A stretch of DNA of 64,000 nucleotides from a bacterium (GTDB lineage Bacteria; UBP15; UBA6099; JAJRTR01). The position numbers and the translations under genes were made by a program. Positions 5,458-64,000 of this stretch are shown piece after piece; the first letter of the stretch is position 1; every line of letters begins with the position of its first letter. The DNA lies in contig JAJRTR010000204.1 of NCBI GenBank assembly GCA_024278215.1, positions 1-64,000 on the forward strand, written 5' to 3'. A model generated the notes under the pieces. It was not told where the DNA came from. It saw only the letters and a list, made by a program, of their open reading frames with translations, and did not search any database.

Positions 5458-5463
5458 TTACTG

Positions 5464-5560
5464 TCTCCTTTCCAAGCACGGGAGGTCGGCGGATTTCCCC
5501 GCCGGCCCTACAGCCCTGGAACCTTAGTCTTTTTCGACCTTAGGCCATCAGGGTCGGAGA
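5464..5560 (-). promoter_or_regulatory. Moco RNA motif riboswitch, P3-less (Wco/Tuco-type) variant
   Basis: Minus strand TCTCC-GA-CCCTG..CCTAAG-GTC GAAAAA GAC-TAAGG..CAGGG-CTGT-AGGGCCGGCGGG GAAA TCCGCCGACCT-CCCGTGCTTGG-AAA-GGAGA. P1, P2 with tetraloop receptor, P4 with GAAA loop, P5 and the conserved CCTCCCG..TGGAAAGG tail are all present. Confidence 0.88.
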
Positions 5561-5567
5561 TTTTCAG

Positions 5568-5596
5568 AGTGTAGTGTCATTATCTTCAAATGTCAA
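5568..5596 (-). promoter_or_regulatory. Sigma70-type promoter for the riboswitch/receptor operon
   Basis: TTGACA-N17-TACACT; the predicted start site near 5561 falls immediately before riboswitch P1. Confidence 0.8.
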
Positions 5597-11225: not shown

Positions 11226-11413
11226 GTTTGATCACCTTCCCGGCGGGACTGTCATTTCATGATACTCGAATTCTGTGCCGTATGGAACAAATCACCGCAA
11301 AATGTAGCCTGAAATCTTTAGAGCGTTTCAGCCGCGGCCATCCCTTTGAAACCCTGCATCGGTGTGTTATAATTCGGAATCGTTAGACCTCGACGATCTC
11401 GGAGAAAATAAAA

Positions 11414-12715: not shown

Positions 12716-12770
12716 TACAGTCGGTGAAGGTTTTGAGAACTACAAAAGAAAAAAGAACGAGGTGTCGGTT

Positions 12771-29477: not shown

Positions 29478-29519
29478 TGCGTGTCCGTTTCTATGTAACA
29501 ATCGGTGCCCGGCTCAACA

Positions 29520-29709
29520 TAGTGTCGCGTCAAGAAGAAAAGCCGTAAGGAAGGTCACCGTAAAAACGATAAACAAGGGCGGGGTCACCGTACCCCGCCT
29601 CAACTTGTGCCTGCAAAAACCGTGTTCGCGAGAAATATGATCAGGCGGAGTACGATGCCACCGCTCTTGTCTACATATCTTGCGCATTTAGAAGTGTGAC
29701 ACAACACTA
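29520..29709 (+). mobile_element. MITE family 2 copy
   Basis: Ends TAGTGTCGCGTCA / TGACACAACACTA; the right end overlaps the TAG of the adjacent gene. Confidence 0.75.
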
Positions 29710-31146: not shown

Positions 31147-33138
31147 TTACTTGCTGTTTGTCTCCGTCGGTCTGTAATCGCCCCCTGCATCGAGCACCCC
31201 GGTGATCCCTCCCTCCGACTTCAACTTATAACTGTTATAGACATTGAAATACGCGGCAGGTTGCTTTATCGCAATAAAGCCTATCGGATCATTATCGGAA
31301 TCGGCAATCGAAGTTCTGCCGCCGCTGCCGAGCACGAGCGGAGCGAACCCGTGGTATTTCAGCACAGCGCGTCCGGCGGCGGAAGCGCTCACTCGATAAC
31401 ATCGAATGCCGGACCGGTCCGCAACGACAAAGCCGTCACCTTCAATAAACGGGTTCATGTTGAAATCCGCGTACTTGTAGACCTCGAATCGTCCGATAAC
31501 ATTTTGTTTAACAAATCGTCTGCCGATGTCGCCGCCGGTATTGCCAGTACCGCCGAATGTATTCTTACAGGCATCGCTCCAGCAAACGATCCAACGAATG
31601 TAATATCTGTCGAGGGCGGCCGCAAGTTCACTTTCCGAATAGCTGCCTATATCTTTCCCGAGAAATACGCCATCGTGGAAATCGGCGTGATGATGCTTGA
31701 GAAAAAGATATGGATAGGGACCGCCGATGAACTCGCGTCCTGTGATGTCGGACAGCAGTGAGGGGAACTGGCTCTCGCTGTATTTGGGTGGCCTGCCGTC
31801 GCGGTCGTTCCAGCCGGAGTCCTCGAGCATGACGCGCCCGTTGGGTGTAGTCGCGTCGCGGAGATATTGCGCGAGTTGCCGTGTGTCGTCGTCCAGCCGC
31901 TTATCCGTCAGGCGGGTGAAGATAAGATAGGGCATCACGGAAACGGCAAGCAATACTGCAATTGCAACGGTCGCGGCGACAGTCTTCCGCGCCGCGCTGA
32001 TCCTGCCTGCCGCCATCTCACTGAGTGCGGCGACACCGGTCATAGCGGGGATTACGAGAAACCAGTCCATATACGCAATGTATCTCGTGGGATAGAACAA
32101 CGCGGTAAACCACCAGAATGAACCGAAGTATACCTCGCCCATGAATACGGCAACAACAAAGAAAAAGAATGAGGCGAGCGCTCGCTTTCCTGTCTGCCAC
32201 ATCCGGTATAAACCGAACATTCCAAACCAGAGAAGGAAGTTGCGAAGTATGGTATTCGGGACGGTAAGCACCAGTGATTCCGGGCCGGAAATCACCTTGT
32301 GCCCCATGATTTTAGAGAGAGTGAAGTAGTCCTTGAAAATGCGCAGTGGGTCATAACAAAGGCCGTGCGGCGCTTCGGCGAGTGCGACCCGGAACTTCAC
32401 GAGATCGAGAAATGGAATCAGCCAGAACGAATTCACCGCGAGTGTCAGCGCGGCTATAAGTATAAGGTGTACAAGGTATCTTATTTTCAACTTGCGCAGT
32501 TGACACAAGATGATTAAAAGGAACGGCACGCCCAGTATGACAAAAGCTGTTTTATGTGCAAGAAAACAAAGTGGAACCAGCACGTAAAGCTGCGGCAGCA
32601 CACGCCTGTCGTCGGCATCGAAGAGGCGGTAGAAAAGAGAAACGGCGTAGAACGACAGGTGAAAAACGATCAGACCTGCGGGCATCCCCAGCAGCATGAA
32701 TGTCACTGGAAGTCCGGTCCACCAATAGGCTGTAAGAACAATCATCGCAAGGTATCTTTTTGCGCCGACGACACCGAAATTCTTCAACCCGAAAAAGAAC
32801 ATGAACGGTGCCATCGCAACTGAGAACACTGTTGTCGCCAGCAGCACGATGTACTCGGGGACCGGTTGCAGCAGCACAGAAAGAAACTGGAGTATAACAT
32901 TGCTGTTCCATGTAAAATTGAGTGGATAGCCCGCCGAATAGCCCGTATCATATCCCCACATGTTATGGAACGCGGAAAAGAACTCGACCGCCCTGTGCTG
33001 CTGGTAGATCATCAGCGCGTAATCATTGTGCAGCAACGGCCCGGAAGCCGTCGCGCCAAGGTACAGGATCACCCCGAGGTGAACGGCCACAAAAAGGATT
33101 GCGAATCCCTTCAATATGTTTCCGAGTGTTTTATTCAT
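31147..33138 (-). CDS. Polytopic membrane protein (GT-C/YfhO-like)
   Basis: WGYD..YSAGYP loop, about 12 TM helices, and a C-terminal soluble domain (GRVMLED, REFIGGPYP). Confidence 0.6.
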   Translation of the reverse strand: MNKTLGNILKGFAILFVAVHLGVILYLGATASGPLLHNDYALMIYQQHRAVEFFSAFHNMWGYDTGYSAGYPLNFTWNSNVILQFLSVLLQPVPEYIVLLATTVFSVAMAPFMFFFGLKNFGVVGAKRYLAMIVLTAYWWTGLPVTFMLLGMPAGLIVFHLSFYAVSLFYRLFDADDRRVLPQLYVLVPLCFLAHKTAFVILGVPFLLIILCQLRKLKIRYLVHLILIAALTLAVNSFWLIPFLDLVKFRVALAEAPHGLCYDPLRIFKDYFTLSKIMGHKVISGPESLVLTVPNTILRNFLLWFGMFGLYRMWQTGKRALASFFFFVVAVFMGEVYFGSFWWFTALFYPTRYIAYMDWFLVIPAMTGVAALSEMAAGRISAARKTVAATVAIAVLLAVSVMPYLIFTRLTDKRLDDDTRQLAQYLRDATTPNGRVMLEDSGWNDRDGRPPKYSESQFPSLLSDITGREFIGGPYPYLFLKHHHADFHDGVFLGKDIGSYSESELAAALDRYYIRWIVCWSDACKNTFGGTGNTGGDIGRRFVKQNVIGRFEVYKYADFNMNPFIEGDGFVVADRSGIRCYRVSASAAGRAVLKYHGFAPLVLGSGGRTSIADSDNDPIGFIAIKQPAAYFNVYNSYKLKSEGGITGVLDAGGDYRPTETNSK

Positions 33139-34843
33139 TATCTCCGGACAGTTCCTGCGACATGCTTTGTATATATGTCACGCACGAGTCGTCTCCGTCG
33201 CACCCCTTTATCAGCGCGTCGATTATTCCCGCCTCTTTATCCCGGTCGTATCCGCTCAATGCGATTTGCGCAGTTCCGGTTGCGAAGTCATCAGACATAA
33301 TAAGTTTTGCAGCCTTTTCGTAGTCGAAATAACTGTTGACGAACAGATCGAAAAGAAGGGCATCCTTATAACCTGCGTCTTTCAGGCGGTATGCTCTCGC
33401 GTTCACACCGCCCGCGGATGATGCCGCGTCCACCATTCGCGCATGTGCCGCCAGCCATGCCGATATTCTTTCGAGCATCGCCTTTTTACCCGTGTCCTTT
33501 ATTCTTCCCTTCAGCAGTTCCGGTTCACAGTCACGCGGCTCCCTCATGCTGCAATTGTTGAAAACCCACACTCTTTTGCCCATCAGGAACGCTTCTTTCA
33601 GGTTGAACAATTCGTCCTTCACGGCAGCTGCTTCGTTCAACCCCCTGAAATGCGGTCCAAGATCGAGCAGAAGGGCATCGCTCTTCCCGCCGGGGACTCG
33701 CTTTACCGATTTGTTTATACCGGCGTCGTGAAGATAATGTTCAATAAGTGACGTGTCCGCATTCAATGCCGCATCCATGAAAACATAAGAATCCGATTGT
33801 TTGAATTTCGTGGAAGTTTCCGCCGCAAAAACCGATGCAACCGCATCGTTGCTCTCCCGTCGGAGCGATATTGCCGCGACCTGAAAAGTCGTCAGAGCGC
33901 CGAGAACTACCGTCGCGAAAACAAACAGCACCACACCGGCCACAATACGTCCGCCGCCACGGCCCGGCCGGAGCAGCATAACAACTCCTGAAATCAGCGC
34001 GAGTCCTATGAACATCTCAACCGCAACGGCCGTTTGTATCGAGCCGATCGCGGCTTCCGGTTCGGGCAGCAATATGCCCGGCGACAACCCCGCGCCGACG
34101 CCTGTAAAAGCCTTCAGCCATATAAGCAGTCCGGGAATAAAATAGAGAAAAACTTTCAGGAACGCTTTGAGCCCCGCCGCGGATACTTTCCCTCGCCGCC
34201 TGTATTTCAATATGAAAAGAATCGACGCCTGCGACAGATAAAGCGGCAATGCGAAACGGACCGTATAGAGCGCGAGAATTGTAAAGATGAAATACAGTTT
34301 GGAATACTTTTCCGCGCCGAAAGCGAAAACGAATAAAAAAAACAGCATCGAAAAAGCCGCGAGACACAAACCCAGCGGTGCCGGATCGGCGGAAAGTACA
34401 TAAGCCTTCGCCGCCGGTAGAAATATTATTATCAGAAGAGCCGCAGAAACGCCCCGGATAATCCAGGATGATTTCGAATAACTCTTTTCATTTTCAGCGT
34501 CGGCAGTAAACAACCCGACGATTTTCAGACACGCGAAAAACGCGGCGCTCAGAAGAAGCGGCGAAATCAATTGCAATATGTGAAGGTCCGAAGCCTTTCC
34601 GGTGAATACCAGAAAGTGCGCTGGAAGATAATAAAGAGGCATTCTGCCTTCGATTGCAGAGAGCAGGAACGTGATGGAGAAATAATTATTCGCGAAAATA
34701 AATGTCTGTGCTCCGGCTGGTGTAACCGCGTGGCTTTCGGGATAAAGAAGGAAAATCGACACGCAGAATAAAGCGGACATAACTATACAGGACCATAATC
34801 CGCCCCGTTTCCATATAGTTGTTTCAGTGCTTCGCTCGTCCAC
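33131..34843 (-). CDS. Polytopic membrane protein of unknown function
   Basis: About nine TM helices plus a C-terminal soluble region; translationally coupled to its neighbours. Confidence 0.7.
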   Translation of the reverse strand: MDERSTETTIWKRGGLWSCIVMSALFCVSIFLLYPESHAVTPAGAQTFIFANNYFSITFLLSAIEGRMPLYYLPAHFLVFTGKASDLHILQLISPLLLSAAFFACLKIVGLFTADAENEKSYSKSSWIIRGVSAALLIIIFLPAAKAYVLSADPAPLGLCLAAFSMLFFLFVFAFGAEKYSKLYFIFTILALYTVRFALPLYLSQASILFILKYRRRGKVSAAGLKAFLKVFLYFIPGLLIWLKAFTGVGAGLSPGILLPEPEAAIGSIQTAVAVEMFIGLALISGVVMLLRPGRGGGRIVAGVVLFVFATVVLGALTTFQVAAISLRRESNDAVASVFAAETSTKFKQSDSYVFMDAALNADTSLIEHYLHDAGINKSVKRVPGGKSDALLLDLGPHFRGLNEAAAVKDELFNLKEAFLMGKRVWVFNNCSMREPRDCEPELLKGRIKDTGKKAMLERISAWLAAHARMVDAASSAGGVNARAYRLKDAGYKDALLFDLFVNSYFDYEKAAKLIMSDDFATGTAQIALSGYDRDKEAGIIDALIKGCDGDDSCVTYIQSMSQELSGDNE

Positions 34844-34844
34844 T

Positions 34845-36071
34845 TTACTTTTTTCTCAGTGCATATACTCTGCCGTCGAGACTACCGATAACGACAATGC
34901 CGGCGCCGACCGCGGGTGAAGATTCGTCGATGTCCCAGCCGGTGAGAAAACGCCATTGCTCTTCACCGGTCTGTAAATCAATCGAATGGAGGAAACCGTA
35001 GTGGCACCCGACGTAAACAGTGCCGTCCACAATAGCAGGCGACGACTCGAACGGTCCGCCGCCGCCATAGACCCATCTTGTTTTGCCGTCGACGGCGGAC
35101 AGTCCGAAAAGGCGGCCCGACATCGTGCCGATAACAATCGTTTTCCCGGTGCCCGCCGCCGAAGACTGGATGCTGCCGCCAAGGTTTTTCTCCCACAACT
35201 TGTGTCCGAACCCTGCGTCCAGCGCAACGAAAATGCCTTCCTTGCCACCTGCATACACCGCGCCGTCAAGCACCAGCGGCATGCCCTCTATCCCGCCGCC
35301 GACTTCGTAGCTCCACGCGAGTTTGCCGGTTTCGACATCCACAGAATAGAGTGTGCCGCTGTTGCAGCCGAAATATACCCTGCCCGAAGCGAACGCCGGT
35401 GAAGACTCGACCGGTCCGTTCGTGGCGAATGCCCATAGTTGCTTTCCGCTCGACGCACCCACCGCCAGAAATTGTGAGTTGTCGGCCCCTATATAGATAA
35501 CGCCCGACGCCATAACAGGAGAAGACTCCGCCCATCGTATGTTGAGAAACCATTTCTGCTCGCCGTCCTCCGTGCTCAGCGCGTGAAGTCCGTCATGCGA
35601 GGCCACATAAACGACATCACCCGTCACCAGCGGCTTTGTCTCCACATCTCCGCCGACCCCCACACTCCACAGCACTTCGCCGGTTCCGGCGTCGAGTTTG
35701 TAAAGCATGTCCGCGTTGTTGCCGATATATACAGAGCCGGACGCTATCGCAGGCGTGCCGATCACAGGCGCTCCCGTATCGTATATCCATGCGACGTCGC
35801 TTTTCAGCATCTTACCGGTGGTTCGAAACGCCTCGACAAGCGCCTTCTTCCCCATTTTTCCGCGATGGATATAGAAATCCGGTTCGAGCGACACCACCGC
35901 GCCGAGCATCGACACCGCGCCGGACGTGTCACCGCCCAGCAACAGCTCATAAGCCCTGCGGTGCAATGTGCGATCTGCAAGATGCAAGCCGCCCCACAGA
36001 AGCAACACTACAGCGGGCCACACGAGTTTCCTCAATAATCTCAACGTGGTTGCCGTCCTTTCGTCCGTCAT
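34845..36071 (-). CDS. PQQ-like (BamB-type) beta-propeller protein, membrane anchored
   Basis: About eight ESSP...G.VY.G...G.LYA.D..TG...W repeats; start uncertain. Confidence 0.88.
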   Translation of the reverse strand: MTDERTATTLRLLRKLVWPAVVLLLWGGLHLADRTLHRRAYELLLGGDTSGAVSMLGAVVSLEPDFYIHRGKMGKKALVEAFRTTGKMLKSDVAWIYDTGAPVIGTPAIASGSVYIGNNADMLYKLDAGTGEVLWSVGVGGDVETKPLVTGDVVYVASHDGLHALSTEDGEQKWFLNIRWAESSPVMASGVIYIGADNSQFLAVGASSGKQLWAFATNGPVESSPAFASGRVYFGCNSGTLYSVDVETGKLAWSYEVGGGIEGMPLVLDGAVYAGGKEGIFVALDAGFGHKLWEKNLGGSIQSSAAGTGKTIVIGTMSGRLFGLSAVDGKTRWVYGGGGPFESSPAIVDGTVYVGCHYGFLHSIDLQTGEEQWRFLTGWDIDESSPAVGAGIVVIGSLDGRVYALRKK

Positions 36072-36286
36072 GCCGGCGCATATGGTAATATCCTGAACCG
36101 GCAATTCTTGAACTGCTATATGGCCTGTGATAGACTTTAATATATTATTCCAGAAGCAGCGTGGTTTTTCCATGTCCGGCTGTTTGAAATGAAGACCGTA
36201 ATAAAAAATGTGAGGCGGCAAAGCACCGAAAGAGCAAATCCGCCGGATAAATGTGGCCGACGACTATAAGGGCCGCGAGGTAGAAA

Positions 36287-51332: not shown

Positions 51333-51406
51333 TGGGTGATCGCAGATTCGAACTGCGGACCTCATCCTTATCAGGGATGCGCTCTAACCGACTGAGCTAA
51401 TCACCC
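51333..51406 (-). tRNA. tRNA-Ile(GAU), CCA not encoded
   Basis: GGGTGATTAGCTCAGTCGGTTAGAGCGCATCCCTGATAAGGATGAGGTCCGCAGTTCGAATCTGCGATCACCCA: full cloverleaf, anticodon GAT. Confidence 0.97.
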
Positions 51407-51658: not shown

Positions 51659-53176
51659 CTGCTGAAAAAAATACTGATAGTTATAGTTCTTGCGCCGCTG
51701 ATTATTGCCGGCGCGGCTTTGCGTGCAACGGCTCAGGCAGGCGGTGACAACGTGATACGGATAAACCTGGTTGTGAGCGATCAGAGGATACTCATTTATT
51801 CGGGTTCTGACCGGGGATTGCATACCGGACAGAAGTTGAAGGTGTTCAGGGGGCAACGCCAGATCGGGCTTATCGAGTTGACCGAGGTGCATTCGAGCTA
51901 TTCCGTGGCCCGGGTGGTGTCGAAGACTGAGGACTTGCAGGACATGGATGTGCTTGGCGCGCCCGCACCGGAGGCGACGGAGAAGGTTGCTGCCTCGAAG
52001 AGCGCGGCGACCGGCAAGACTGCGGTGGAGAAAAAAACTGCGGTGGCGAAAAAGGCTTCTTCGCGGAAGACTGATGCAAAAGCTGAGACTACGAAAAAAG
52101 AAACGAAAGAGAGTGCGGAAAAGAAAACAACTGAAAAGAAGAGCGGCAGGGCTTCGTCCCGGAGGTCGTCGCGCGGCAGCAGTAAGGCGGCTTCGGATGA
52201 CGACAAGAAATCGGACGCCGGGAAGAGTTCGAGTCGAAGTTCGAGAAGACGTAGCGCGAGCAAAAGCGGCAGCTCTGAGGATGCGTCAAGCGGCGACTCC
52301 GAAAAGAAAAGCACATCAAGCCGCAGCAGGGGCAGATCGAAGAGTTCTTCTTCCGCCGCCGATAAAAGTAGCGATAAGGATAAGGCAGGTGCAACCAAAA
52401 CTGAAAAGGCCGCAAAAGAGAAGTTGAAAGTGGTGAGTCCGCTGCTGTATAAGTTTCCGACCAGCATGGGCGGTACGGGACTCTGGACTGTACCGACAGC
52501 CGACATACTGGATAAGGGGCACTATGCCGCTTCTTATTACAGGGGTTGGTACAGTGCCGCCCGCAGCGGATATGTTTACGGCCCGGACACCTCGTCTTAC
52601 ATAGAGTCCATAGATTACGATGAAGATGTTTTTTCGATGACTTACGGGCTTGGCAACAGGCTTGAGGTGTATTTCGCGCTGACTAATGTGTCGATCACGA
52701 GCGTGAAGAAAACGACGAACATGACGCCCGCGTTCGATCGTTCGTCGAATTCAGACCTGGACGGAAATGCGATAGGTATCAAGTATAATCCCGGCAAGAA
52801 TTATGTTCTGAAAGAGACAACACATAAGAAGTGGGATTTCGCGCTGGGCGGAACGAGAGTGCAGATGGACAATGTGGACGGCAGTGAATTCTATGGAGTA
52901 GTTTCGCTGCCGCTCAAGAAGTTCAACATGCACGCCGGTTTATTCTACTACAATCTCGAAGGCATGAGCGGTAAGAACTTCGGGACGATGATGGGAGTTG
53001 AATTTCCGCTTCGTTCGGACCTTTCGCTGATCGGCGAAGGGAAGCTTTTCCAGTCCAACTACACATGGAACGCCGCGCTTCGTTATATCTACCAGGAGAG
53101 GGGCGCGTTGCTCCTGGGTATTTCTGATACAGACGACACGCAGGTGAAACAGGTTGGTCTGTCATATTCATATTAG
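51659..53176 (+). CDS. Outer-membrane protein: small beta domain + Ser/Lys/Arg-rich linker + YjbH-like beta-barrel
   Basis: Signal peptide from a CTG start; GSDRGLHTGQKLKV..IGLIEL..V...YSVARV; GGTGLWTVPTADIL; terminal GLSYSY. Confidence 0.75.
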   Translation: MLKKILIVIVLAPLIIAGAALRATAQAGGDNVIRINLVVSDQRILIYSGSDRGLHTGQKLKVFRGQRQIGLIELTEVHSSYSVARVVSKTEDLQDMDVLGAPAPEATEKVAASKSAATGKTAVEKKTAVAKKASSRKTDAKAETTKKETKESAEKKTTEKKSGRASSRRSSRGSSKAASDDDKKSDAGKSSSRSSRRRSASKSGSSEDASSGDSEKKSTSSRSRGRSKSSSSAADKSSDKDKAGATKTEKAAKEKLKVVSPLLYKFPTSMGGTGLWTVPTADILDKGHYAASYYRGWYSAARSGYVYGPDTSSYIESIDYDEDVFSMTYGLGNRLEVYFALTNVSITSVKKTTNMTPAFDRSSNSDLDGNAIGIKYNPGKNYVLKETTHKKWDFALGGTRVQMDNVDGSEFYGVVSLPLKKFNMHAGLFYYNLEGMSGKNFGTMMGVEFPLRSDLSLIGEGKLFQSNYTWNAALRYIYQERGALLLGISDTDDTQVKQVGLSYSY

Positions 53177-53379: not shown

Positions 53380-53787
53380 ATGCCTGATAGAAAGATAAGA
53401 GTAATAATAGCGAAACCGGGTCTCGATGGTCACGACCGGGGCGCGAAAGTAGTGGCGCGTGCGTTGCGTGACGGCGGGATGGAAGTGATCTACCTGGGTC
53501 TACAGCAGACACCCGCGGATATAGTTAATGCGGCGATTCAGGAAGATGCGGATGTCATCGGGCTAAGCTCGCTCGCCGGTGCGCACATGACACATTTCAA
53601 ACGTGTCCTTCAGTTGCTTAAAGACAACGATGCTGAAGATATTCTTACGGTCGGCGGCGGGATAATACCTGAAGAAGACAAGAAGGCGCTGCTCGACATG
53701 GGTGTCGCCGCGCTTTTCGATCCCGGCGCTCACACCGACGAGATTATCAGGACAATCGAGCAGCTTGTCAAACAGCCTGTAGTTTAG
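53380..53787 (+). CDS. Methylmalonyl-CoA mutase cobalamin-binding small subunit
   Basis: AKPGLDGHDRGAKVVARALRD, GLSSLAGAH and GGGIIP motifs. Confidence 0.95.
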   Translation: MPDRKIRVIIAKPGLDGHDRGAKVVARALRDGGMEVIYLGLQQTPADIVNAAIQEDADVIGLSSLAGAHMTHFKRVLQLLKDNDAEDILTVGGGIIPEEDKKALLDMGVAALFDPGAHTDEIIRTIEQLVKQPVV

Positions 53788-53929: not shown

Positions 53930-54988
53930 ATGGGGAAAAAAGAAATACGAAAAAAGATAGATGCAATAGATTCGCGGATACTCGAGCTGCTCAACGAGCG
54001 TGCCGGTCTGGCACTTCAGACCAGTAAGTTCAAGAAGCATTTTTACGATCCGGTGCGCGAGCGGCAGATTTTCGAGCGTCTGTGGGAGATGAACAAGGGG
54101 CCGCTCGAAGATGACCACATTGCAAACATATACAGGGAAGTGTTGTCTGCCTGCCGCGGACTCCAGAGGCCACTCAAGGTTGCATTTCTGGGGCCGAAAG
54201 CGACGTTTTCACACGCCGCCGCAAAAAGTCGTTTCGGCGCGTCCATCGAGGAACATCCCTGTGCGGACATCGGACTGGTTTTTGATGAAGTCGAGAAGGA
54301 CCGCGCCATCTACGGCGTCGTGCCGTTCGAGAACTCGAGCGAGGGCATTATCAACTACACGCTCGACCGCTTTGCCGTCACGCCGGTGAGTATATGCGGC
54401 GAGATTTACAGCGAGATCGTTATGAACCTGATCTCGAAGCAGGAAGACATATCGAAGATAAAGAAAATATACACGCATCCCAAGGCAATCGAGCAGTGTT
54501 CCGAGTGGCTGCGTCGGAACGCTTCGGACAAAGAGGTTATCCAAGTGGCGAGCACCGGGCTTGCCGCCCAGAGGGCAGCGCGCAGCAGGTCAGCCGCCGC
54601 CATTGCCGGAAAACTCGCGGCGGAAATATACAGCTTGAAAATCATCGAATCGCACATCGAGGACAGCCGCGACAATGTCACACGTTTCATGATCATCGGC
54701 AAGCAGAAAATGCCGAAAACGGGCAATGATAAAACATCCGTGCTTTTCTCCGTCCGCCACGAACCGGGCACCCTCTACCGGGCGCTCAATTCGTTCGAGA
54801 AGTACAACATCAATCTGACAATGATGCAGGCGCGTCCTTCGCGGAAAGGGCAGTGGGAGTATATCTTCTTTGTCGATCTGATGGGGCACAAGTCGGACGA
54901 AGAGGTCAAGAGCGCGCTGGCCGAAATGAAAAAGGAAACCATCATCCTTAAAACCTGCGGTTCCTATCCCGCTTCCGATCAACAGTGA
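53930..54988 (+). CDS. pheA: Chorismate mutase/prephenate dehydratase
   Basis: RKKIDAID..LLNER; FLGPKATFSH, PFENSSEG, NVTRF and an ACT domain. Confidence 0.96.
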   Translation: MGKKEIRKKIDAIDSRILELLNERAGLALQTSKFKKHFYDPVRERQIFERLWEMNKGPLEDDHIANIYREVLSACRGLQRPLKVAFLGPKATFSHAAAKSRFGASIEEHPCADIGLVFDEVEKDRAIYGVVPFENSSEGIINYTLDRFAVTPVSICGEIYSEIVMNLISKQEDISKIKKIYTHPKAIEQCSEWLRRNASDKEVIQVASTGLAAQRAARSRSAAAIAGKLAAEIYSLKIIESHIEDSRDNVTRFMIIGKQKMPKTGNDKTSVLFSVRHEPGTLYRALNSFEKYNINLTMMQARPSRKGQWEYIFFVDLMGHKSDEEVKSALAEMKKETIILKTCGSYPASDQQ

Positions 54989-54994
54989 CGGGTT

Positions 54995-56704
54995 TTATTC
55001 AGTTGATTTCAACTTATAAATCTTTATCTCCGGGCCGGGGCGGGCCGGGGTTTCGGGTATGAGCTTGATGAGCGCGGCTTCGGCGTCGAGGTCGTCGTAG
55101 AAGCGGACTGCGGCGGGGTAGTATTCGCGTGCGGCGCAGTAGCGGTCATATATCGCACTGGATGCAACAAGGTATTCATATCCTTCTTTCCTGTACATTT
55201 CCATTTTGTAGGCCGACAGTGAGTATGTGTTGAAGACATAGTATTTCTTCTCGATTTTTTTCAGGGCCATCAAGTGAAATTTCTTTTGTGACGATGCTTC
55301 CGCTTCAGGCGTTTTGCGGTTTTTGTATGCGTAGAAGGGTACAGCTTCCTCGACATAGTATTTTTCGTAGCGCGCGGCGCGGCCTGTGTCGGTAAGCGAT
55401 GCCGCGGTGGGGTGCAGTTGCGGGCCACCCATCTCGATGGCGATGCGCGCGCCGGGCGGTATATTTTTTTCTATCCATTCGCGAGCGATCGTTCTTGTGT
55501 TGGTCTTTCTGATAAAGGCGTCGTATTTTATAGTTGCTGTTGCGGGAACAATTGTCAGGATGATTGCGACGGCGGCGACAACGGCGGCGCGGCGCGGCGC
55601 GGGTATTCTTAAGCGCTCCGGAAATTCCGCTACGATCCTGCCCGAGAGTATGCAAAGCGCCGGGATGATAATAACCATGTAGCGCTCGAATACCTGCGCG
55701 GACATGAATCCGTGGATGATGTAAAAGACGGCAATGTATGTGAGCAGCATCCAGTCCGCGCCGCGACGCTTTGCGGCGGCGAACGCTATAGCGCATAATG
55801 ACACGAGCAGCAGAGGGAGTCCGAGGCCGTCGCGAAGGTAGACCGCCGGGATTTGCCACCACATTTTCGACAGTACTTCCATACCGAGCCAGCCGTGTTC
55901 GAGCAGGCTGCGTTGTATGTTTATGTCCTGTGCGAAGGTTCTGAAATCGAGTATGGTGTACGGCGCACACAGGAAGAAGGCGGCGGCGGAGGCGAGGCTC
56001 ATGAGAATAAGATTTACATTTATATGTTTAAGAGGATTCGCCGCGTGCCTGTCGGTGAACATGTGTGACGAGTGCGAAACGATAAGCGCGGGGACGACAA
56101 CGAAGGCTGTGTATTTTGTGGCTATCGCTGCGCCTGCGGCGAGTCCGGCGAGGACGTAGTTTCTTTTTGTCGACGTGGCACCCGGTCCCGGCGCGAGAAA
56201 CATTGCCAGCATTATCCAGAAAGTAACGGGCACGTCGGTTGTAGCGAAGTGGGAATGAACGCAGTGGAGATGCGCGAACGCGAGAAGCATAGCGGCGGCG
56301 AGACCGGCGCGTTTCCCGTAATACTTTTTTCCAATCGCGTACGCAAGCCAGACAGTTGCGACGCCCATGCAGGCCGAGAGAGTGCGGGCGATGAGGTAGA
56401 GAGGTGTGGGGTCGATGAAGTACATTGTGCCGAAGGCTGCCGCGCTGTGAAAGATGCCTGTGAAGCTGCCGACTACGAAATATGCGCCGAACAGAATGAA
56501 GACGAGATACATCTGGAGTGCGGGGTAGAAAAAGAAGTGCGGGTTGAGATCGCCTTTGCCGAAACGGACTGCACGGGCAACGATGTGGACTTCGTCGATA
56601 TTGAGTTGATCGGGGAGACCGGATCCGTTGCCGTAGAGCCTGACGGCCAGGGCGGCGACAAGTATCGTTGCGAGTATCAACCTGTCTTTAGTGCTGGTGG
56701 TCAT
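54995..56704 (-). CDS. GT-C (PMT/ArnT-like, family 39/83) glycosyltransferase
   Basis: First-loop IDE, NPHFFFYP, ATTDVP, ATKY and RYMVIIIP motifs; many TM helices. Confidence 0.85.
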   Translation of the reverse strand: MTTSTKDRLILATILVAALAVRLYGNGSGLPDQLNIDEVHIVARAVRFGKGDLNPHFFFYPALQMYLVFILFGAYFVVGSFTGIFHSAAAFGTMYFIDPTPLYLIARTLSACMGVATVWLAYAIGKKYYGKRAGLAAAMLLAFAHLHCVHSHFATTDVPVTFWIMLAMFLAPGPGATSTKRNYVLAGLAAGAAIATKYTAFVVVPALIVSHSSHMFTDRHAANPLKHINVNLILMSLASAAAFFLCAPYTILDFRTFAQDINIQRSLLEHGWLGMEVLSKMWWQIPAVYLRDGLGLPLLLVSLCAIAFAAAKRRGADWMLLTYIAVFYIIHGFMSAQVFERYMVIIIPALCILSGRIVAEFPERLRIPAPRRAAVVAAVAIILTIVPATATIKYDAFIRKTNTRTIAREWIEKNIPPGARIAIEMGGPQLHPTAASLTDTGRAARYEKYYVEEAVPFYAYKNRKTPEAEASSQKKFHLMALKKIEKKYYVFNTYSLSAYKMEMYRKEGYEYLVASSAIYDRYCAAREYYPAAVRFYDDLDAEAALIKLIPETPARPGPEIKIYKLKSTE

Positions 56705-56781
56705 CAGGAAATCCGCCGCAGTTCGGTGCGATGTATTTGTTGTGAAACCGTCAGGTAACGATAGTGAATAAGGTGATATGT

Positions 56782-57399
56782 TTACCAGTGCCAGCCCAGT
56801 GAGCGGTTACGTTTCCTGAAAGTAATGTATATTGCTCCGGCGGCTGCGGCTTTCAATATTGCTCCGGGGATGAAGGGGACGAGGCCCATCATGACAACTT
56901 CGCGAATGCCTGTGCCGGTGACGAGTTTGAGGTGTAGACAGCCGAAGAAAAAGATTACGGCAAGTCCCGCGACAAGTGCTGAAGTTATTCTGAGAATGTT
57001 TTCCTTCTGAGAATCGTTGTTTCCGATTATGTAACCTATGACGGGCTGTGCGGCGAGAAAGCCGACGATGTATCCGCCTGTGGGGCCGGTGAGATGCGCT
57101 ATGCCCACGCCCATGAGCGTGAACATGGGCATGCCCGCAATACCAAGCACGATATATGCCGCCTGTGACACTGTTCCGTAGCGAGGACCAAGCAGCAGCG
57201 CGCCGAGCAGGACGAAAAACACTTGCATTGTGAAGGGCACAGGTGTGAAGGGGAGAGGAATCCTGATAAACGCGCCTATGGCTGTGAGAAATGTGAATGC
57301 CGCTATTCCAAGCATCACACTTATCTGTTTACTTATCAGAATATCCCTGTTGGGAACTGAAGTTGCAATTTGTGGTCCTTGTATTCTCATGTCTTTCAC
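56782..57399 (-). CDS. bioY: Biotin transporter S component
   Basis: PLPFTPVPFTMQ, GPTGGYIVGF and PFIPG motifs. Confidence 0.95.
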   Translation of the reverse strand: MKDMRIQGPQIATSVPNRDILISKQISVMLGIAAFTFLTAIGAFIRIPLPFTPVPFTMQVFFVLLGALLLGPRYGTVSQAAYIVLGIAGMPMFTLMGVGIAHLTGPTGGYIVGFLAAQPVIGYIIGNNDSQKENILRITSALVAGLAVIFFFGCLHLKLVTGTGIREVVMMGLVPFIPGAILKAAAAGAIYITFRKRNRSLGWHW

Positions 57400-58190
57400 C
57401 TTATCAGAGTGGTTTCTTCAAACTCGACTGATTCTGTCGATCCGTTGTCATTGTGAACGATGAGCCGCCCGCGGTTGTCGATGTCGACAGGAACAACCTT
57501 TCGCTTGTTGCCGTCCGGCGATTGCAGAATTACATTGCGCCCGAACAGCACAGCCCTTTTTCTCCATTCCGCAATGATGTTATCTAATGAACCGGATTTG
57601 AATTCAGCGATTCTATTATCTATCATAATCGTGATTATTTCAAGCATTTTTTCAATCGGCCAGTTATTGCCGGACAGTGATTTTACAGAAGTGGAATGCT
57701 CCTGTATTTCCGCAGGCAACTGCTCCGGCGAGTTGTTCACGTTGATCCCGATGCCGATTGCCACGAACGGAATACTATTTTCGACAGATGTCGCCTCGCA
57801 CAATATTCCGGCGATTTTTTTCATATCGACGAGCACGTCGTTCGGCCAGCTGAGACCAATGGAATCGGGCGGCAGTCCGAGTTCCACGAAAACCTTTTCG
57901 AGCGCGTCCGCCGCAGCAACACCTGCTGCAATGGACAGAGCGGGAAGACGCGCGATGTCTTTTGCGCCGGGTCGCACAAGCACACTCATCCACAGGCCGC
58001 CGCATGGCGAGTGCCACACGCGGCCCCGGCGGCCACGCCCCGCACGTTGCTCGGCGGCGACGGCTATGGTTCCGTCCGGCGCACCGGCAAGCCCCAGCCT
58101 TCGGATCTCGTCGTTTGTGGATTCCACCACGCCGAACCGGTGGATTCTTTTTGTTTCAGGCATATCCGGTATTCCGAATAATGGTTTCAA
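57396..58190 (-). CDS. birA: Biotin-protein ligase (no HTH)
   Basis: STND, QRAGRGRRGRVWHSP, WPNDV, KIAGILCE and GIGINV motifs. Confidence 0.95.
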   Translation of the reverse strand: MKPLFGIPDMPETKRIHRFGVVESTNDEIRRLGLAGAPDGTIAVAAEQRAGRGRRGRVWHSPCGGLWMSVLVRPGAKDIARLPALSIAAGVAAADALEKVFVELGLPPDSIGLSWPNDVLVDMKKIAGILCEATSVENSIPFVAIGIGINVNNSPEQLPAEIQEHSTSVKSLSGNNWPIEKMLEIITIMIDNRIAEFKSGSLDNIIAEWRKRAVLFGRNVILQSPDGNKRKVVPVDIDNRGRLIVHNDNGSTESVEFEETTLIR

Positions 58191-58201
58191 TTACTTGGTG
58201 C

Positions 58202-61165
58202 CTACAGTGCGATATTGCCGTGTTTGCGGCGCGGTCGGTGCTCGCGTTTCGACTGGAGCATGTCCAGCGCGGTGATGATACGCTGGCGTGTGTCGTTCGG
58301 AGCGATAACATCGTCGATGTAGCCGAATTCCGCCGTGATGTAGGGATTGGCGAATTTTTCACGGTACTCGCGTGCGAGTTCGGCGCGTTTGGCTTCGGGG
58401 TCGGCAGCCTCGCTGATCTGTTTTCGCGCAATTATGTTGATCGCGCCGTCGGGGCCCATCACGGCAAGTTCGGCGGTGGGCCATGCGAGGTTGATGTCGC
58501 CGCCCGAGTGTTTCGAGCACATGACGTCGTATGCGCCGCCGTAAGCTTTTCGTGTGATGATCGTGATCTTCGGCACAGTCGCTTCGCAGAAGGCATAGAG
58601 GAGTTTCGATCCGTGGCTGATGATGCCGCCATGTTCCTGGTCTGTGCCGGGCAGGAAGCCGGGCACATCAACGAATGTGACGAGCGGGATATTGAAAGAG
58701 TCGCAGAACCGAACGAAGCGGGCTGATTTGCGCGACGCGCTGATGTTGAGGCAGCCTGCGAGGTAGTTGGGCTGGTTGGCGACGATACCCACGGGGAAGC
58801 CGTTATAGCGGGCGAAGCCGACGACGATGTTCTGCGCGTAGTACTGGGCGACTTCGAGGAATTCGCCGGCGTCGACGGTTTTAGCGATGACATTTTTTAT
58901 ATCGTAAGGGTGGTTCGGATCGTCGGGGAGGATGTCGACGAGGTTTTCGCCGGGTTCGAGAATCGCGTCGCGCGGCTCGGCAAGCGGGGGGTCTTCCATG
59001 TTGTTGGAGGGCATGTATTCGAGCATATAGCGAACGAGGTCGAGACAGTCTTTCTCGGTTGGTGTGACGAACTGAACGACGCCGCTTGTGGAGTTGTGGG
59101 CCATGGCGCCGCCGAGTTCCTCGAAGGAAACTTCCTCGCCTGTCGCGGCCTTGATGACCTGCGGGCCGGTGATGAACATGTGGCTGGTTTTGTCTACCAT
59201 GGCGATGAAGTCGGTCATAGCGGGCGAATAGACCGCGCCGCCGGCGCACGGGCCGAGGATCGCGGATATCTGAGGCACGACGCCTGAGCTGAGCACGTTG
59301 CGGAAGAAGATGTCGCCGTAGCCGGCGAGGCTCGCGACGCCTTCCTGAATGCGAGCGCCGCCGCAGTCGTTAAGCCCGATCACAGGCGCTCCGGCCTTCA
59401 TCGCAAGGTCCATGAGCTTGCATACTTTCTGCGCGTAGCGTTCACCGAGCGCACCGCCGAAGACAGTGAAATCCTGCGAGAAGACGAACACCAGGCGACC
59501 GTTTATGTTGCCGTATCCGCAGGCGACGCCGTCTCCGATCGGCCTTTTCTTGTCGAGCCCGAAATCGCGGCACCTGTGGCGCACAAACCTGTCGATCTCG
59601 ACGAAAGTGCCCTCGTCGAGCAGGTAATCGATTCTTTCGTAGGCGGTCATCTTGCCGCGTTCGTGCTGTTTGTCGATGGCCTTGAGACCGCCGCCGAGTT
59701 TCGCTTCTTCGGACATCGTTTCATAAAGCTTCATTTTTCGCTGGTTGTCCGTGAGAGATTCGTCTTCCTCCTTCTCGGGGAGAGTGATCTCCGGCGCGGG
59801 CCGTTCCGGTTCTTTCTGTTTTTCGAGACGCTTCTTGAAGAAGTCGACGGCGACCTGCGGGAACAGCACATAAGTGAGGACGTCTTCTTCCGACTGTTTC
59901 CACTCTTTGACGGCTTTGCGGGCGGCGGGCAACTCGGGTTTGATGGTCGCGCCGGGCCTGTCGGTGATGGGTTCGATGTCGCCGATTGCTTTTTTGAGCA
60001 GTTTTTTATTTATCTTGCCGGGCGCGCGGCCGTAGAGTCCCTTAAGATAAAGTTTCACTTCCTCGGTGATGATTTTATAGCGCTCGCCGGTCATTACGTT
60101 TATCGTAGCCTGTACGCCGACGATCTGGCTCGAGGGCGTAACGAGTGGCGGGTAGCCGAGGTCTTTGCGCACGCGCGGCACTTCGTCGAGCACTTCGTCT
60201 ATCTTGTCCAGCATATCCTGTTCCTTGAGCTGGTTGACCAGGTTGGAGAACATGCCGCCGGGGATCATGTGCACGAGGATGCCGGTGGAAACGCGCTCGG
60301 ACAGTGGGTTCAGCAGGTCCGCGTAATTCTCACGGACATGTTTGAAGCGGTCGGAAATCTCGACAAGTTTCGCGAGATCGAGGCCGGTGTCGTGTTCCGT
60401 GCCACGGAGCGCGGCGACAGTGGTTTCGGTGGGAGGTTGCGACGTGCCGCCGGAAAGGGGCGAAAGCGCCGTGTCGAGAATATCCACGCCCGCGTCGCAC
60501 GCGGCCATATACGCCATCGGCGCCATGCCGCTTGTGCAGTGGCTGTGCAGATGCACGATGGTGTTGAGCTTTTTCTTTAGCGCTTTTGTCAGTTCATATA
60601 CAGCCTGTGGCGTGATGACACCCGCCATATCTTTTATACATATCGAGTCCGCGCCCAGCTCGTGGAGTTCGGTGGCCGTCTCGACAAACTTCTTTATCGT
60701 ATGCACGGGGCTGACCGTGTATGAGATGGTGCCCTCGCAGTGTGCGCCGACTTTCTTCACTTCGCGCATCGCCACTTCCATGTTGCGCACGTCGTTAAGG
60801 GCGTCAAACACACGGAACACATCCACGCCGTTCTTGTGCGCGAGCTGCACGAATTTTTTCACAACATCGTCCGCGTAGTGTTTGTAGCCGACGACATTCT
60901 GCCCGCGCAGCAGCATCTGCATCGGTGTGTTGGGGCATGCCTTCTTGAATCGGCGTATACGTTCCCAGGGGTCTTCGCCGAGGAACCTGATGCAGGAGTC
61001 GAATGTCGCGCCGCCCCAGGTCTCGAGCGAGAAGAACCCGATTTTATCCATGTCCGAGGCGATGGGCATCATGTCGTCGATCTTCATACGCGTTGCAATC
61101 AGCGACTGGTGCGCGTCGCGGAATATCGTGTCTGTAAGCTGAACTTTTTTGTTTTTCCTTGCCAT
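58202..61165 (-). CDS. Fused pyruvate/oxaloacetate carboxyltransferase (5S/OadA-like) + acyl-CoA carboxyltransferase (12S/PccB-like)
   Basis: N-half has RDAHQSL, WGGATFD, IKDMAG, HSHCTSG and [11 protein letters not shown]-half has [41 protein letters not shown] and KHGNI. Confidence 0.93.
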
Positions 61166-61226
61166 TTATGTAATCCTCTTTTCTGCTATTATCACAGCAT
61201 CATTGTATCCGCGCATATATTTCGAT

Positions 61227-61631
61227 CTACTCGCAGATTTCTACAAGTATGCCGCCCGTCGCTTTTGGGTGGATGAAAGCGATTTTCTTATTGTGGGCAC
61301 CGATGCGCGGCTTCTCGTCGATCATCCTCACGCCTGAAGCCATAAGATTTTCGATGACCGATTCGATATTCTCGACAGCGATGGCAATGTGGTGGAGGCC
61401 GTCGCCTTTCTTGTCGAGGAATTTCGAGATGGGGCTGTCGTCGGTCGTCGGCTCGATCAGTTCGATTTTCGCGTCGCCCGTGTCGAGTATCGCGGCCTTC
61501 ACCTTCTGCTCAGCGATCTCCTCGATGCCCTCGAATTCGAGTCCGATTAGGTCTTTATACAATCTGAGCTGCGCGTCGATGCTTTTGACGGCTATGCCTA
61601 TGTGGTCGAGACCGTTTATTTTGTTTGCCAT
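61227..61631 (-). CDS. mce: Methylmalonyl-CoA epimerase
   Basis: DHIGIAV, IELIEP, GLHHIA and FIHPKATGGILVE motifs. Confidence 0.95.
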   Translation of the reverse strand: MANKINGLDHIGIAVKSIDAQLRLYKDLIGLEFEGIEEIAEQKVKAAILDTGDAKIELIEPTTDDSPISKFLDKKGDGLHHIAIAVENIESVIENLMASGVRMIDEKPRIGAHNKKIAFIHPKATGGILVEICE

Positions 61632-61817
61632 GATTATTTCCCCCATTTGATTTTATGTGTAGCTCGTCGAAAAAAAACGGTAGTGGAAGCCGGTGCCGGC
61701 GGTTTCCGGTGTTCCCGGGGGCCGGTCGGGTAACACACAGACTGAACGCTCCCGCGTTCACAACCTTTTCTTTTCGCTACAAACGATTGGTGATTGCCGG
61801 TCCGGTGTCGATTCAAG

Positions 61818-62513
61818 TTACAGATCATTCAATTTAAGTTTCAGTCTTGCGATAGCGTTTGTAATGTCGATGTCCTTGGGACACGCCTCGTTGCAGTTGA
61901 AAATTGTGTGGCACTTCCACGGCCCCTTGCTCGTGTTTATCAGGGCGAGCCGTTCCTTCTGTGCCTGGTCGCGCGTGTCGAATATGAACCTGTAGGCTTT
62001 GAGCAGAGCGGACGGGCCGATATAATCGTCGTCTGCCCAGAACGAGGGGCACGAAGACGTGCATGAAGCACACAGGATGCAGGATGCGGCTTCGTCGATA
62101 AGCTCCTGGTCTTCCGGCCACTGTATCCGCTCGGTGTCCGGTGGCGGCGAATTGTTCACGAAATATGGCATGATCGAGTAGAATCTTTCATAGAAGCGGT
62201 CCAGGTTAACGATGAGGTCTTTCTCGAGCGGGAACGAGCGAAGCGGTTCGACGATGATGTTTTTTCCGACATTCTTTACAAGGGTCTGGCAGGCCAGTCG
62301 GTTCTGTCCGTTTATCGTCATGGCACAGGAACCGCAGATCGCGTGGCCGCAGGAGCGGCGGAAAGCGAGTGTGCCGTCCTGGTGCCATTTTATCTCGTGC
62401 AGGCAGTCGAGCACCGGTGTTTCCGGCTCGGCCTCGACCGTGAAATCCTCGAAGTGAGGCCGCCTGTCCTTTGCAGGGTTGAACCTCTTTATCCTGAAGC
62501 GGATCTTCTGCAT
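61818..62513 (-). CDS. sdhB: Succinate dehydrogenase/fumarate reductase Fe-S subunit
   Basis: SCGHAICGSC, CILCASCTSSCP and CHTIFNCNEACP motifs. Confidence 0.96.
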   Translation of the reverse strand: MQKIRFRIKRFNPAKDRRPHFEDFTVEAEPETPVLDCLHEIKWHQDGTLAFRRSCGHAICGSCAMTINGQNRLACQTLVKNVGKNIIVEPLRSFPLEKDLIVNLDRFYERFYSIMPYFVNNSPPPDTERIQWPEDQELIDEAASCILCASCTSSCPSFWADDDYIGPSALLKAYRFIFDTRDQAQKERLALINTSKGPWKCHTIFNCNEACPKDIDITNAIARLKLKLNDL

Positions 62514-64000
62514 CAGTACTTCCTTTCCTTCGGCTGGTAGCGTGTTATCACCACATCGCGCCAGGCTGTATGTGGTTCTTTGTCTGTTTTAAACAGGAGT
62601 GTATGCTTGAGGAAATTCGCATCGTCGCGTTCGGTGAAATCCACACGCGAGTGAGCGCCTCGACTCTCCTTGCGCTGCATGGCCGAGTAAGCGACCGCGG
62701 CAGCGAAATCGAGCATATTTTTCAGTTCCAGCGCTTCCTGGAGTTCGGTGTTGAACTGTTGCGTTTTGTCGTCAAGCGCGATTTTGTCGTAGTCGGCGGC
62801 GAGTTCGCGGACCTCATCATAAGCCTTCTGCATCCGTTTTTCTTCGCGGTACGCGCCGCAGTTTTCCATCATTGTGCCCTGCATCTTTTCGCGAAGTTCG
62901 GAAATCCTTATGCCGTCCGTTTTCGACAGCAGTTTCTTTATCAGTGCTTCGGTTTTCTTTTCGGGTCCGGCGGGCAGTGCCGGGCGTTGCGCTTCAGCAA
63001 GGTACTCACGCATATCTTTTCCTGTGCGGCGACCGAACACAACAGTGTCCACCAGTGAATTACAGCCGAGCCGGTTCGCGCCATGGACCGATTCGCAGGC
63101 GGCTTCTCCGGCGGCGTAGAGGCCCGGAACCGGCGTGTTGTTTTCGTCGGCGATCACACGTCCCATAGTGTCGGTGGGAACGCCGCCCATCATGTAGTGG
63201 CCTGTGGGCATCACAGGTATCGGGTCCTTCGTGCAGTCGACGCCGACGTAAGTCATGCAGAACTTATAAATTTCAGGCAATTTTTTAAGGATGGCTTCGC
63301 GCCCGATGTGGTGTATCCGGAGATAGACATATTCTTTGCCGTTTATGCCGCGGCCCGCGGCGATTTCGTCATAGATAGCGCGTGAAATAATGTCGCGCGG
63401 GGCGAGGTCTTTCATGTCCGGCGCGTACCTTTCCATGAAGGGCTCGCCTTCGGAATTTATAAGTATGCCGCCCTCGCCGCGCACGCCCTCGGTGATGAGT
63501 ATGCCGAGCGGATAGAGTCCGGTGGGGTGGAACTGCGCGAACTCCATATCCTGGAGCGGTATGCCCGCGTTGAATGCCATCGCGTAGCCGTCGCCAGTGC
63601 CTACATGCGCGTTCGACGTGATCCTGTAGATGCGGCCGCCGCCGCCCGTGGCAATCATTATCGCTGTGCAGTGGAATATGTGCAGTTCGCCCGTTTTCAT
63701 GTCTGCCGCCACCGCGCCGCAGACCGTGCCGCCGTTCAACAGTAGTTCGGTGACGAAGAATTCGCTGTAGTAGTTGACTTTCGCGCGTACGCTCTGCTCG
63801 AACAGCGAGTGCAGGATAACATGGCCGGTGCGGTCGGCGGCGTAGCACGCGCGTGGGTGCGAGTGGCCGCCGAACGGTCGCTGCGCGATCCGGCCTTCGG
63901 GCGTTCGGCTGAACGGAACGCCTATATGTTCGAGTTCATACACGGTCGGTATCGCGTTGTTGCAGAGAATCTCGATCTGGTTCTGGTCGCCGAGATAGTC
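62513..64000 (-). CDS. sdhA: Succinate dehydrogenase/fumarate reductase flavoprotein (5' part outside the window)
   Basis: QRPFGG, QFHPTG, TEGVRGEGG, HYMMGG, HGANRLG, ESRGAH and C-terminal ERKY. Confidence 0.96.
   Translation of the reverse strand, partial: DYLGDQNQIEILCNNAIPTVYELEHIGVPFSRTPEGRIAQRPFGGHSHPRACYAADRTGHVILHSLFEQSVRAKVNYYSEFFVTELLLNGGTVCGAVAADMKTGELHIFHCTAIMIATGGGGRIYRITSNAHVGTGDGYAMAFNAGIPLQDMEFAQFHPTGLYPLGILITEGVRGEGGILINSEGEPFMERYAPDMKDLAPRDIISRAIYDEIAAGRGINGKEYVYLRIHHIGREAILKKLPEIYKFCMTYVGVDCTKDPIPVMPTGHYMMGGVPTDTMGRVIADENNTPVPGLYAAGEAACESVHGANRLGCNSLVDTVVFGRRTGKDMREYLAEAQRPALPAGPEKKTEALIKKLLSKTDGIRISELREKMQGTMMENCGAYREEKRMQKAYDEVRELAADYDKIALDDKTQQFNTELQEALELKNMLDFAAAVAYSAMQRKESRGAHSRVDFTERDDANFLKHTLLFKTDKEPHTAWRDVVITRYQPKERKY

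Follow-up and report, generated by a model that had tools for sequence, protein, structure and literature searches.

In the classical transcarboxylase complex, six dimers of the 5S subunit sit on one hexamer of the 12S subunit, held by twelve chains of the 1.3S biotin carrier, which also holds 5S and 12S together; a carrier that is a separate protein is the normal state of a transcarboxylase. In the single-chain form of protists, an acyl-coenzyme A (CoA) carboxyltransferase comes first and is followed by PycB with its own biotinyl domain. The sections of PMC2909200 that deal with the Propionibacterium freudenreichii subunits describe separate genes in one polycistronic unit. Fused transcarboxylases are reported from Giardia, Entamoeba, retortamonads, Mastigamoeba and Monocercomonoides ('ACCT/PycB') in passages of PMC7985675, PMC8136499, PMC12308965 and PMC3199775; in the first three of these the protist protein is termed a 'fusion enzyme' and assigned to malonyl-CoA supply, and Jordan et al. 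2003 is cited as the primary paper in PMC3199775 and PMC7985675. Here we describe a bacterial gene built in another way, found in a stretch of 64,000 nucleotides (nt) from a member of the lineage UBP15 (GenBank assembly GCA_024278215.1, contig JAJRTR010000204.1, positions 1 to 64,000 of the forward strand; hereafter the window): its single product joins a complete 5S-type carboxyltransferase to a complete 12S-type carboxyltransferase, in that order, and carries no biotinyl domain.

The open reading frame (ORF) begins with an ATG at 61165, 8 nt after a Shine-Dalgarno-like AAGAGGA, and runs uninterrupted for 987 amino acids (aa) on the minus strand. Its parts are as follows.

58202..61165, minus strand: fused carboxyltransferase gene (P0001), a 5S/OadA/PycB-type half, a linker and a 12S/PccB-type half; 987 aa, from Pfam and structure matches
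60350..61147, minus strand: HMGL-like TIM-barrel domain, aa 7–272 (Pfam, 5e-18)
59771..60280, minus strand: PYC_OADA 'conserved carboxylase' domain, aa 296–465 (Pfam, 6e-54)
59720..59827, minus strand: linker of 36 aa, aa 447–482, rich in Pro, Glu and Lys (alignment of the seven fused homologues)
58211..59671, minus strand: complete Carboxyl_trans domain, aa 499–985 (Pfam, 1.6e-197; profile positions 1–493 of 493)

A preliminary description of the window had called this gene a single-chain 5S-12S fusion joined by a charged Pro/Glu linker, without giving the strand. The unbroken frame, the Pfam domains of both types and the recurrence of the architecture in seven sequences bear out the fusion, and the peptide then cited from the charged, flexible linker corresponds to aa 450–471 (nt 59753–59818), close to where it had been placed. 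The 1:1 stoichiometry also proposed there follows trivially from the fusion itself.

Each half aligns end to end with solved structures of its own family. For the N-terminal half these are the beta subunit of a pyruvate carboxylase (5ks8_C, 9e-162), the Vibrio oxaloacetate decarboxylase alpha subunit OadA (2nx9_A, 4.5e-158) and the 5S subunit (1rqb_A, 8e-139 over aa 6–449); for the C-terminal half they are propionyl-CoA carboxylase beta chains (1vrg_A, 7e-213; 1xnv_A, 3e-210), and with the whole protein as query the 12S subunit (1on3_A) matches aa 486–985 at 1.3e-174. No single chain among the solved structures covers both halves. An AlphaFold2 model of the whole fusion, built from an alignment of seven sequences, reached a mean predicted local distance difference test score (pLDDT) of 53.4 and a predicted template-modelling score (pTM) of 0.39, and is unusable for the domain arrangement; aa 451–472 have no predicted secondary structure in this low-confidence model, which is weak evidence. 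A 93-sequence alignment intended for modelling was discarded because MAFFT had spread its 5S-type rows across the full length, and a search of the ESM Atlas gave no usable match.

The motifs of both active sites are present and intact. Residues D17, K178, H207 and H209 align with the metal and carbamyl-lysine site of 5S-type structures and are invariant in all seven fused sequences; we take them to have the catalytic roles given in the 1RQB literature (metal ligands and a carbamylated lysine), for which the source is reportedly Hall et al. 2004. In the C-terminal half, an 11-residue motif aligns with G182-G183 of PccB, and YGGAYD aligns with PccB G419-A420-Y421-D422, so that D880 of the window protein corresponds to D422; these two motifs are the ones aligned with the oxyanion holes of PccB. 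The D422 position, which we take to be a determinant of acyl-CoA specificity with Asp marking propionyl/methylmalonyl-CoA enzymes, holds Asp in six of the seven fused sequences, the window protein included, and Val in P0004 (read by eye from the alignment).

Few other proteins share this architecture. When 5.8 billion clusters were searched with the whole protein, seven of the 120 matches listed had both domain sets: P0001–P0006, at 68–100% identity, and P0008. When only the junction (aa 390–590) was searched, six of the 120 listed matches covered the whole region, again P0001–P0006, and no protein among the best 150 of 1.84 billion representatives pairs a 5S match in one half with a 12S match in the other. 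In a survey of one genome per species across 185,579 species, 80 loci were kept; both halves are matched at 14 of them, as a single ORF at two (L001 and L002). P0005 and the L001 ORF, both 1013 aa long and on contigs of equal length, we count as the same protein, which leaves seven distinct fused sequences—the window protein, P0002, P0003, P0004, P0005 (=L001), P0006 and L002—of which the other six are 65–82% identical to the window protein. The fusion is very rare among bacteria (six clusters among the 5.8 billion, from the 120 matches listed, and two of the 80 genome loci), in keeping with the preliminary description's view of it as uncommon, and it is conserved within a small clade of uncultured bacteria.

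Two database proteins resemble the fusion superficially. P0173 (1115 aa), the one long match in the search of 1.84 billion representatives, was considered as a fused form and rejected: Pfam resolves it into two tandem 5S-type units with no Carboxyl_trans domain. P0008 (931 aa) has the reverse order, 12S then 5S, with garbled ends: its 12S part is truncated at the start, and its C-terminus is rich in Arg and seems to be out of frame. Read-through or a frameshift across neighbouring 12S and 5S genes probably produced it as an artefact. How such products could arise is shown by L041, where positions 9989–13108 hold 12S and 5S in the same frame with a single stop between them and the 5S start 18 nt further on.

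P0008 looks like what would result if two neighbouring genes had been joined by a sequencing error during assembly or gene calling, and the same could be asked of the window gene; for the latter we give this explanation next to no weight. The nearest unfused relatives are ordered 12S then 5S, and simple read-through of such a pair cannot yield the window protein. Six other independent sequences carry the same junction, and only the linker varies: across the seven it is 36–60 aa long and rich in Pro, Glu, Lys and Ala, and mean identity to the window protein among the fused homologues is 71% and 78% for the two halves and 29% for the linker. The trees of the two halves also agree. The fused sequences group as a single clade in the tree of the 5S half (36 rows, with L006 omitted as partial; Shimodaira–Hasegawa-like approximate likelihood ratio test, SH-aLRT, 97) and one clade in the 12S-half tree (86 rows, LG+G4, with L014, L026, L028, L043 and L046 omitted as partial; SH-aLRT 99), both being quick trees, with weaker support values than a careful search would provide. 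The same subgroups recur in both: L002 alone, L001 with P0006, and the window protein with P0002, P0003 and P0004. Because the junction is shared, the trees agree and variation is confined to the linker, we take the fusion to be genuine and under selection, and very unlikely to be an assembly artefact; the simplest reading of the trees is one fusion event, retained since.

In the window the fusion gene lies in a string of genes on the same strand, in the order SdhA, SdhB, methylmalonyl-CoA epimerase, fusion, biotin-protein ligase and BioY; one further gene of related function lies nearby on the other strand.

62513..64000, minus strand: SdhA/fumarate reductase flavoprotein subunit, lacking its N-terminus, which lies beyond the window end (TIGR01812, 678.8 bits against a cut-off of 567.3)
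61818..62513, minus strand: SdhB/fumarate reductase iron-sulfur subunit (NF004616, 312 bits against 228)
61227..61646, minus strand: methylmalonyl-CoA epimerase, with 61 nt between it and the fusion downstream (TIGR03081 equivalog, 163.7 bits against 114.95; Glyoxalase_4)
57396..58190, minus strand: biotin-protein ligase, 264 aa, starting 11 nt past the fusion stop (TIGR00121, 156 bits against 83)
56782..57399, minus strand: BioY biotin transporter component, whose gene shares 4 nt with that of the ligase (BioY, 3.6e-38)
53380..53787, plus strand: stand-alone B12-binding small subunit of the methylmalonyl-CoA mutase type (TIGR00640, 155.6 bits against 57.45)

The ligase match spans positions 2–223 of a 235-position ligase-domain model. 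No minus-strand terminator-like site falls in the gaps of the epimerase–fusion–ligase–BioY string, and a promoter and terminator scan of 54500–64000 gave no excess over shuffled sequence. The B12-binding small subunit is 4.4 kb away, on the opposite strand and outside the operon; it may nonetheless belong to the same pathway as the fusion.

The closest sequence relatives of the two halves are unfused. They occur at 12 loci (L004–L006, L010, L019, L020, L023, L029, L031, L032, L041 and L060) in uncultured Planctomycetota, Thermoplasmatota, Myxococcota and unclassified bacteria, and stand at 52–61% identity for the 5S and about 62–66% for the 12S, the 5S-like gene of L019 reaching only 33%. In all 12 the carboxyltransferases are separate genes ordered 12S then 5S, the reverse of the fusion. 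The biotin carrier is placed as follows.

L010, L020, L023, L029, L032 and L041 (6 loci): carrier as a separate gene right after 5S
L005, L031 and L060 (3 loci): carrier fused to the 5S C-terminus
L019 (1 locus): carrier match weak and partial
L004 and L006 (2 loci): contig ends, so that the carrier position cannot be judged

Genes of methylmalonyl-CoA metabolism adjoin several of these pairs. At L041 the order is MeaB, epimerase, mutase, 12S, 5S, carrier; at L005 and L060 the mutase adjoins the 12S/5S pair, and L005 also has an epimerase.

With an epimerase, SdhA and SdhB, a biotin ligase and BioY around the fusion, and with relatives that lie beside mutase, epimerase and MeaB and, among the 94 flanking ORFs of related loci, beside no biotin carboxylase, the context points to the transcarboxylase of a succinate-propionate pathway. 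On these grounds the protein is probably an ATP-independent, biotin-dependent transcarboxylase with both carboxyltransferases in one chain, most likely methylmalonyl-CoA:pyruvate carboxyltransferase (EC 2.1.3.1).

Several observations weigh against this assignment. The fusion reaches none of the NCBIfam equivalog cut-offs: it scores 571.5 bits against the 5S-subunit equivalog NF008984, a model built around Propionibacterium-type 5S subunits, where 827 are needed, and the only model whose cut-off it passes is a domain model, 'pyruvate carboxylase subunit B' (NF006761, 756.8 bits against 402). Its N-terminal half resembles PycB and OadA more than it does the Propionibacterium 5S subunit, so that a transcarboxylase cannot be told from a component of a decarboxylase or carboxylase by sequence alone. 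A tblastn search with the L041 proteins found neither a mutase catalytic subunit nor MeaB in the window. The gene context is not conserved among the fused sequences: at L001 the order is HEAT-repeat protein, carrier, fusion, Rrf2 regulator, and at L002 the genes around the fusion are unrelated. Finally, no carrier gene lies within the 64-kb window, and none lies within 10 kb on either side of the L002 fusion.

Three other functions would fit parts of this evidence. The best matches in NCBIfam and the PDB are named as carboxylases (NF006761 and 5ks8_C; 1vrg and 1xnv), as would be expected of a double carboxyltransferase module for ATP-dependent carboxylation that works with a remote biotin carboxylase and carrier and combines pyruvate and propionyl-CoA carboxylase activities; the partner proteins would lie outside the window. 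We think such a module unlikely, since no ATP-grasp biotin carboxylase was seen among the 58 ORFs of the window and the 94 ORFs that flank related loci, seven relatives have an adjacent carrier without a carboxylase domain and three have one fused to 5S, and joining two carboxyltransferases in one chain would be most useful if one hands the carboxyl group to the other. The high standing of oadA (704.5 bits) and mmdA (824.5 bits) among the NCBIfam names, and of Vibrio OadA (2nx9) as the second-best structural relative of the N-terminal half, would instead suit a soluble alpha-type module of a sodium-translocating decarboxylase, loading carboxybiotin from oxaloacetate, methylmalonyl-CoA or both for a membrane beta subunit. 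Both scores fall just under their curated cut-offs (756.5 and 998.8), no OAD_beta-type membrane subunit was seen among the same window and flanking ORFs, and the relatives' neighbours are mutase, epimerase and MeaB; we seriously doubt that the fusion serves a sodium pump.

An enzyme of the preferred type, a transcarboxylase, could also use another acyl-CoA pair, for example converting oxaloacetate and acetyl-CoA to malonyl-CoA and pyruvate. Acyl-CoA specificity cannot be read with certainty from sequence, and this is the reaction assigned to the protist fusion enzymes in the pertinent parts of PMC8136499, PMC7985675 and PMC12308965. The gene adjoining the fusion, however, is a methylmalonyl-CoA epimerase equivalog, and relatives sit beside methylmalonyl-CoA mutase. 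Asp at the position of PccB D422 in six of the seven fused sequences, if its meaning is as we assume, also speaks for methylmalonyl-CoA, and we regard a different acyl-CoA pair as quite unlikely.

A methylmalonyl-CoA:pyruvate carboxyltransferase of this build would need a biotin carrier from elsewhere. Neither the fusion protein nor any of the 58 distinct window ORFs has a Pfam Biotin_lipoyl match, and a hidden Markov model (HMM) of the carrier domain, made from 10 carriers of related loci and run with filters off on all six-frame stop-to-stop segments of at least 30 aa, found no match in the window at E<=10; the same model recovers the L001 carrier at 6e-32. A scan of the window for biotinyl motifs returned no more than two candidates, VMKM at 24860 and an AMKA within the 12S half, and the surroundings of neither are those of a biotinyl domain. 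The source contig is 72,643 nt long, and about 8.6 kb of it extends beyond the window. At L001, a 159-aa Biotin_lipoyl protein is encoded directly upstream of the fusion. We infer that the fusion is likely served in trans by a separate carrier whose gene lies outside the 64-kb window. The preliminary description, which had stressed the missing carrier, was thus right that neither protein nor window holds one, and made more of the fact than it warrants: a carrier in trans is ordinary for a transcarboxylase, one lies next to the fusion at L001, and a biotin ligase and BioY follow the gene in the window itself.

The mechanism established for the two homologous families suggests how the enzyme might work. 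The C-terminal 12S/PccB-type domain would move a carboxyl group from (S)-methylmalonyl-CoA onto the biotin of the separate carrier, and the carboxybiotin arm would then swing to the N-terminal 5S/OadA-type TIM-barrel domain, where pyruvate would receive the carboxyl group; the products of this reversible reaction would be oxaloacetate and propionyl-CoA. The linker of about 36 aa would serve as a covalent tether in place of the non-covalent 5S-12S attachment, fixing the ratio at 1:1. The carrier would be biotinylated by the ligase encoded directly downstream, from biotin that BioY brings into the cell. Along with the epimerase and the fumarate reductase/succinate dehydrogenase of this gene string, the enzyme would link pyruvate and oxaloacetate to succinate and propionyl-CoA, be it for propionate formation or for its oxidation, in a methylmalonyl-CoA pathway of the Wood-Werkman type.

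The order of the domains bears on how the fusion arose. Loss of a stop codon between adjacent genes was considered and rejected, all 12 unfused relatives being ordered 12S then 5S; that order calls either for a rearrangement or for descent from an operon ordered 5S then 12S. Judging by locus tags in the portion of PMC2909200 that lists them, the P. freudenreichii order would be 5S, 12S, 1.3S.

A further clue comes from the sister group of the fusion's N-terminal half (joint clade, SH-aLRT 98), which consists of the 5S-carrier fusions of L005, L031 and L060 together with P0124, P0125 and P0144. After the last conserved 5S motif, the 5S-carrier fusions have a small strand-rich domain and then the biotinyl domain, each of the two preceded by a linker; those of the three loci, from metagenome-assembled genomes of Planctomycetota, are located as follows.

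L005, 6277–8268: 5S, linker, strand-rich domain, linker, biotinyl domain
L031, 11867–13744: the same arrangement
L060, 1748–3649: the same arrangement

This kinship hints that in the fusion a 12S domain may have been put where an ancestor had its carrier, behind a swinging-arm linker that was already there. The unfused 5S proteins of L041, L020 and L010 have a tail of about 70 aa after the last conserved motif, which is absent from the fusion, where the linker stands instead. Yet another combination was seen in P0128 (687 aa), a biotinyl domain fused ahead of a 12S-type carboxyltransferase.

Several features of the window lie apart from the fusion. A molybdenum/tungsten cofactor (Moco) riboswitch at 5449–5571 on the minus strand (72.3 bits against a gathering score of 36) stands just upstream of a TonB-dependent receptor gene with Plug and beta-barrel domains (3221–5320, minus strand), a pairing that suggests cofactor-controlled uptake across the outer membrane. 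Genes for B12-binding radical SAM proteins at 26383–27855 (plus strand) and 29707–31125 (minus strand) flank large ORFs without family matches; the ORFs recorded with them are 27897–29501, 31147–34843 and 34845–36221 (minus strand), and a PQQ_2/BamB-like beta-propeller protein adjoins. At L002, too, two genes for B12-binding radical SAM proteins lie no more than 10 kb from the fusion. The closest named relatives of the window's IlvD protein are labelled 'MAG: bacterium' (73–76% identity), with Candidatus Sumerlaeota next at 66%. A tRNA gene lies at 51333–51406 (minus strand, 72.7 bits). The 485-aa ORF at 51719–53176 (plus strand), which has no Pfam or NCBIfam match, has a long low-complexity middle rich in Ser, Lys and Ala, and towards its C-terminus Tyr, Gly and Ser abound in a part that may form many strands; it may be a membrane or surface protein.

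The different assembly that the preliminary description took the fusion to imply is a conjecture. If the fusion is a transcarboxylase, its assembly could be minimal and differently built. We tentatively picture, though with considerable doubt, a hexamer of 12S domains bearing six tethered 5S domains, possibly as three dimers, in which the linker makes the bridging by the 1.3S N-terminus dispensable and the carrier is free or shared, possibly a general biotin carboxyl carrier protein. Three 5S dimers would be half of the classical complement. A natural single-chain 5S-12S enzyme would be simpler than the very large, multi-subunit Propionibacterium complex and could be used to study how carboxybiotin travels between active sites, as well as for building propionate or oxaloacetate pathways in engineered strains. 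The known chemistry is unchanged by the finding, which adds a bacterial case, one that appears to have arisen once, to the many fusion and fission events among biotin enzymes.

Compared with the P. freudenreichii (shermanii) transcarboxylase (1on3, 1rqb), the window enzyme has the same two carboxyltransferase folds, both complete, and is like it in having its gene among Wood-Werkman-type genes, in showing no biotin carboxylase among the 58 ORFs of the window and, by our reading, in relying on a separate carrier protein; it differs in being one polypeptide at 1:1 with no adjacent carrier gene. The chains 5ks8_C and 2nx9_A resemble it in that a carboxyltransferase is followed by a Pro/Ala/Glu-rich linker and another domain, but their linker leads to a biotinyl domain and that of the window protein to a 12S-type carboxyltransferase. 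With the fused transcarboxylases of protists it shares an acyl-CoA-type and a pyruvate-type carboxyltransferase in one chain that has no biotin carboxylase; its order, 5S then 12S, and its lack of a Biotin_lipoyl domain set it apart from the protist form. No protist sequence is among the matches listed in our protein searches, and full-text literature searches found no bacterial 5S-12S fusion. Of the novelty that the preliminary description had seen in this gene, one part therefore gives way and the other stands: a fused single-chain transcarboxylase is not new as a concept, being described in the protist papers cited at the outset, whereas a bacterial fusion that runs from 5S to 12S and dispenses with a carrier in the chain is new.

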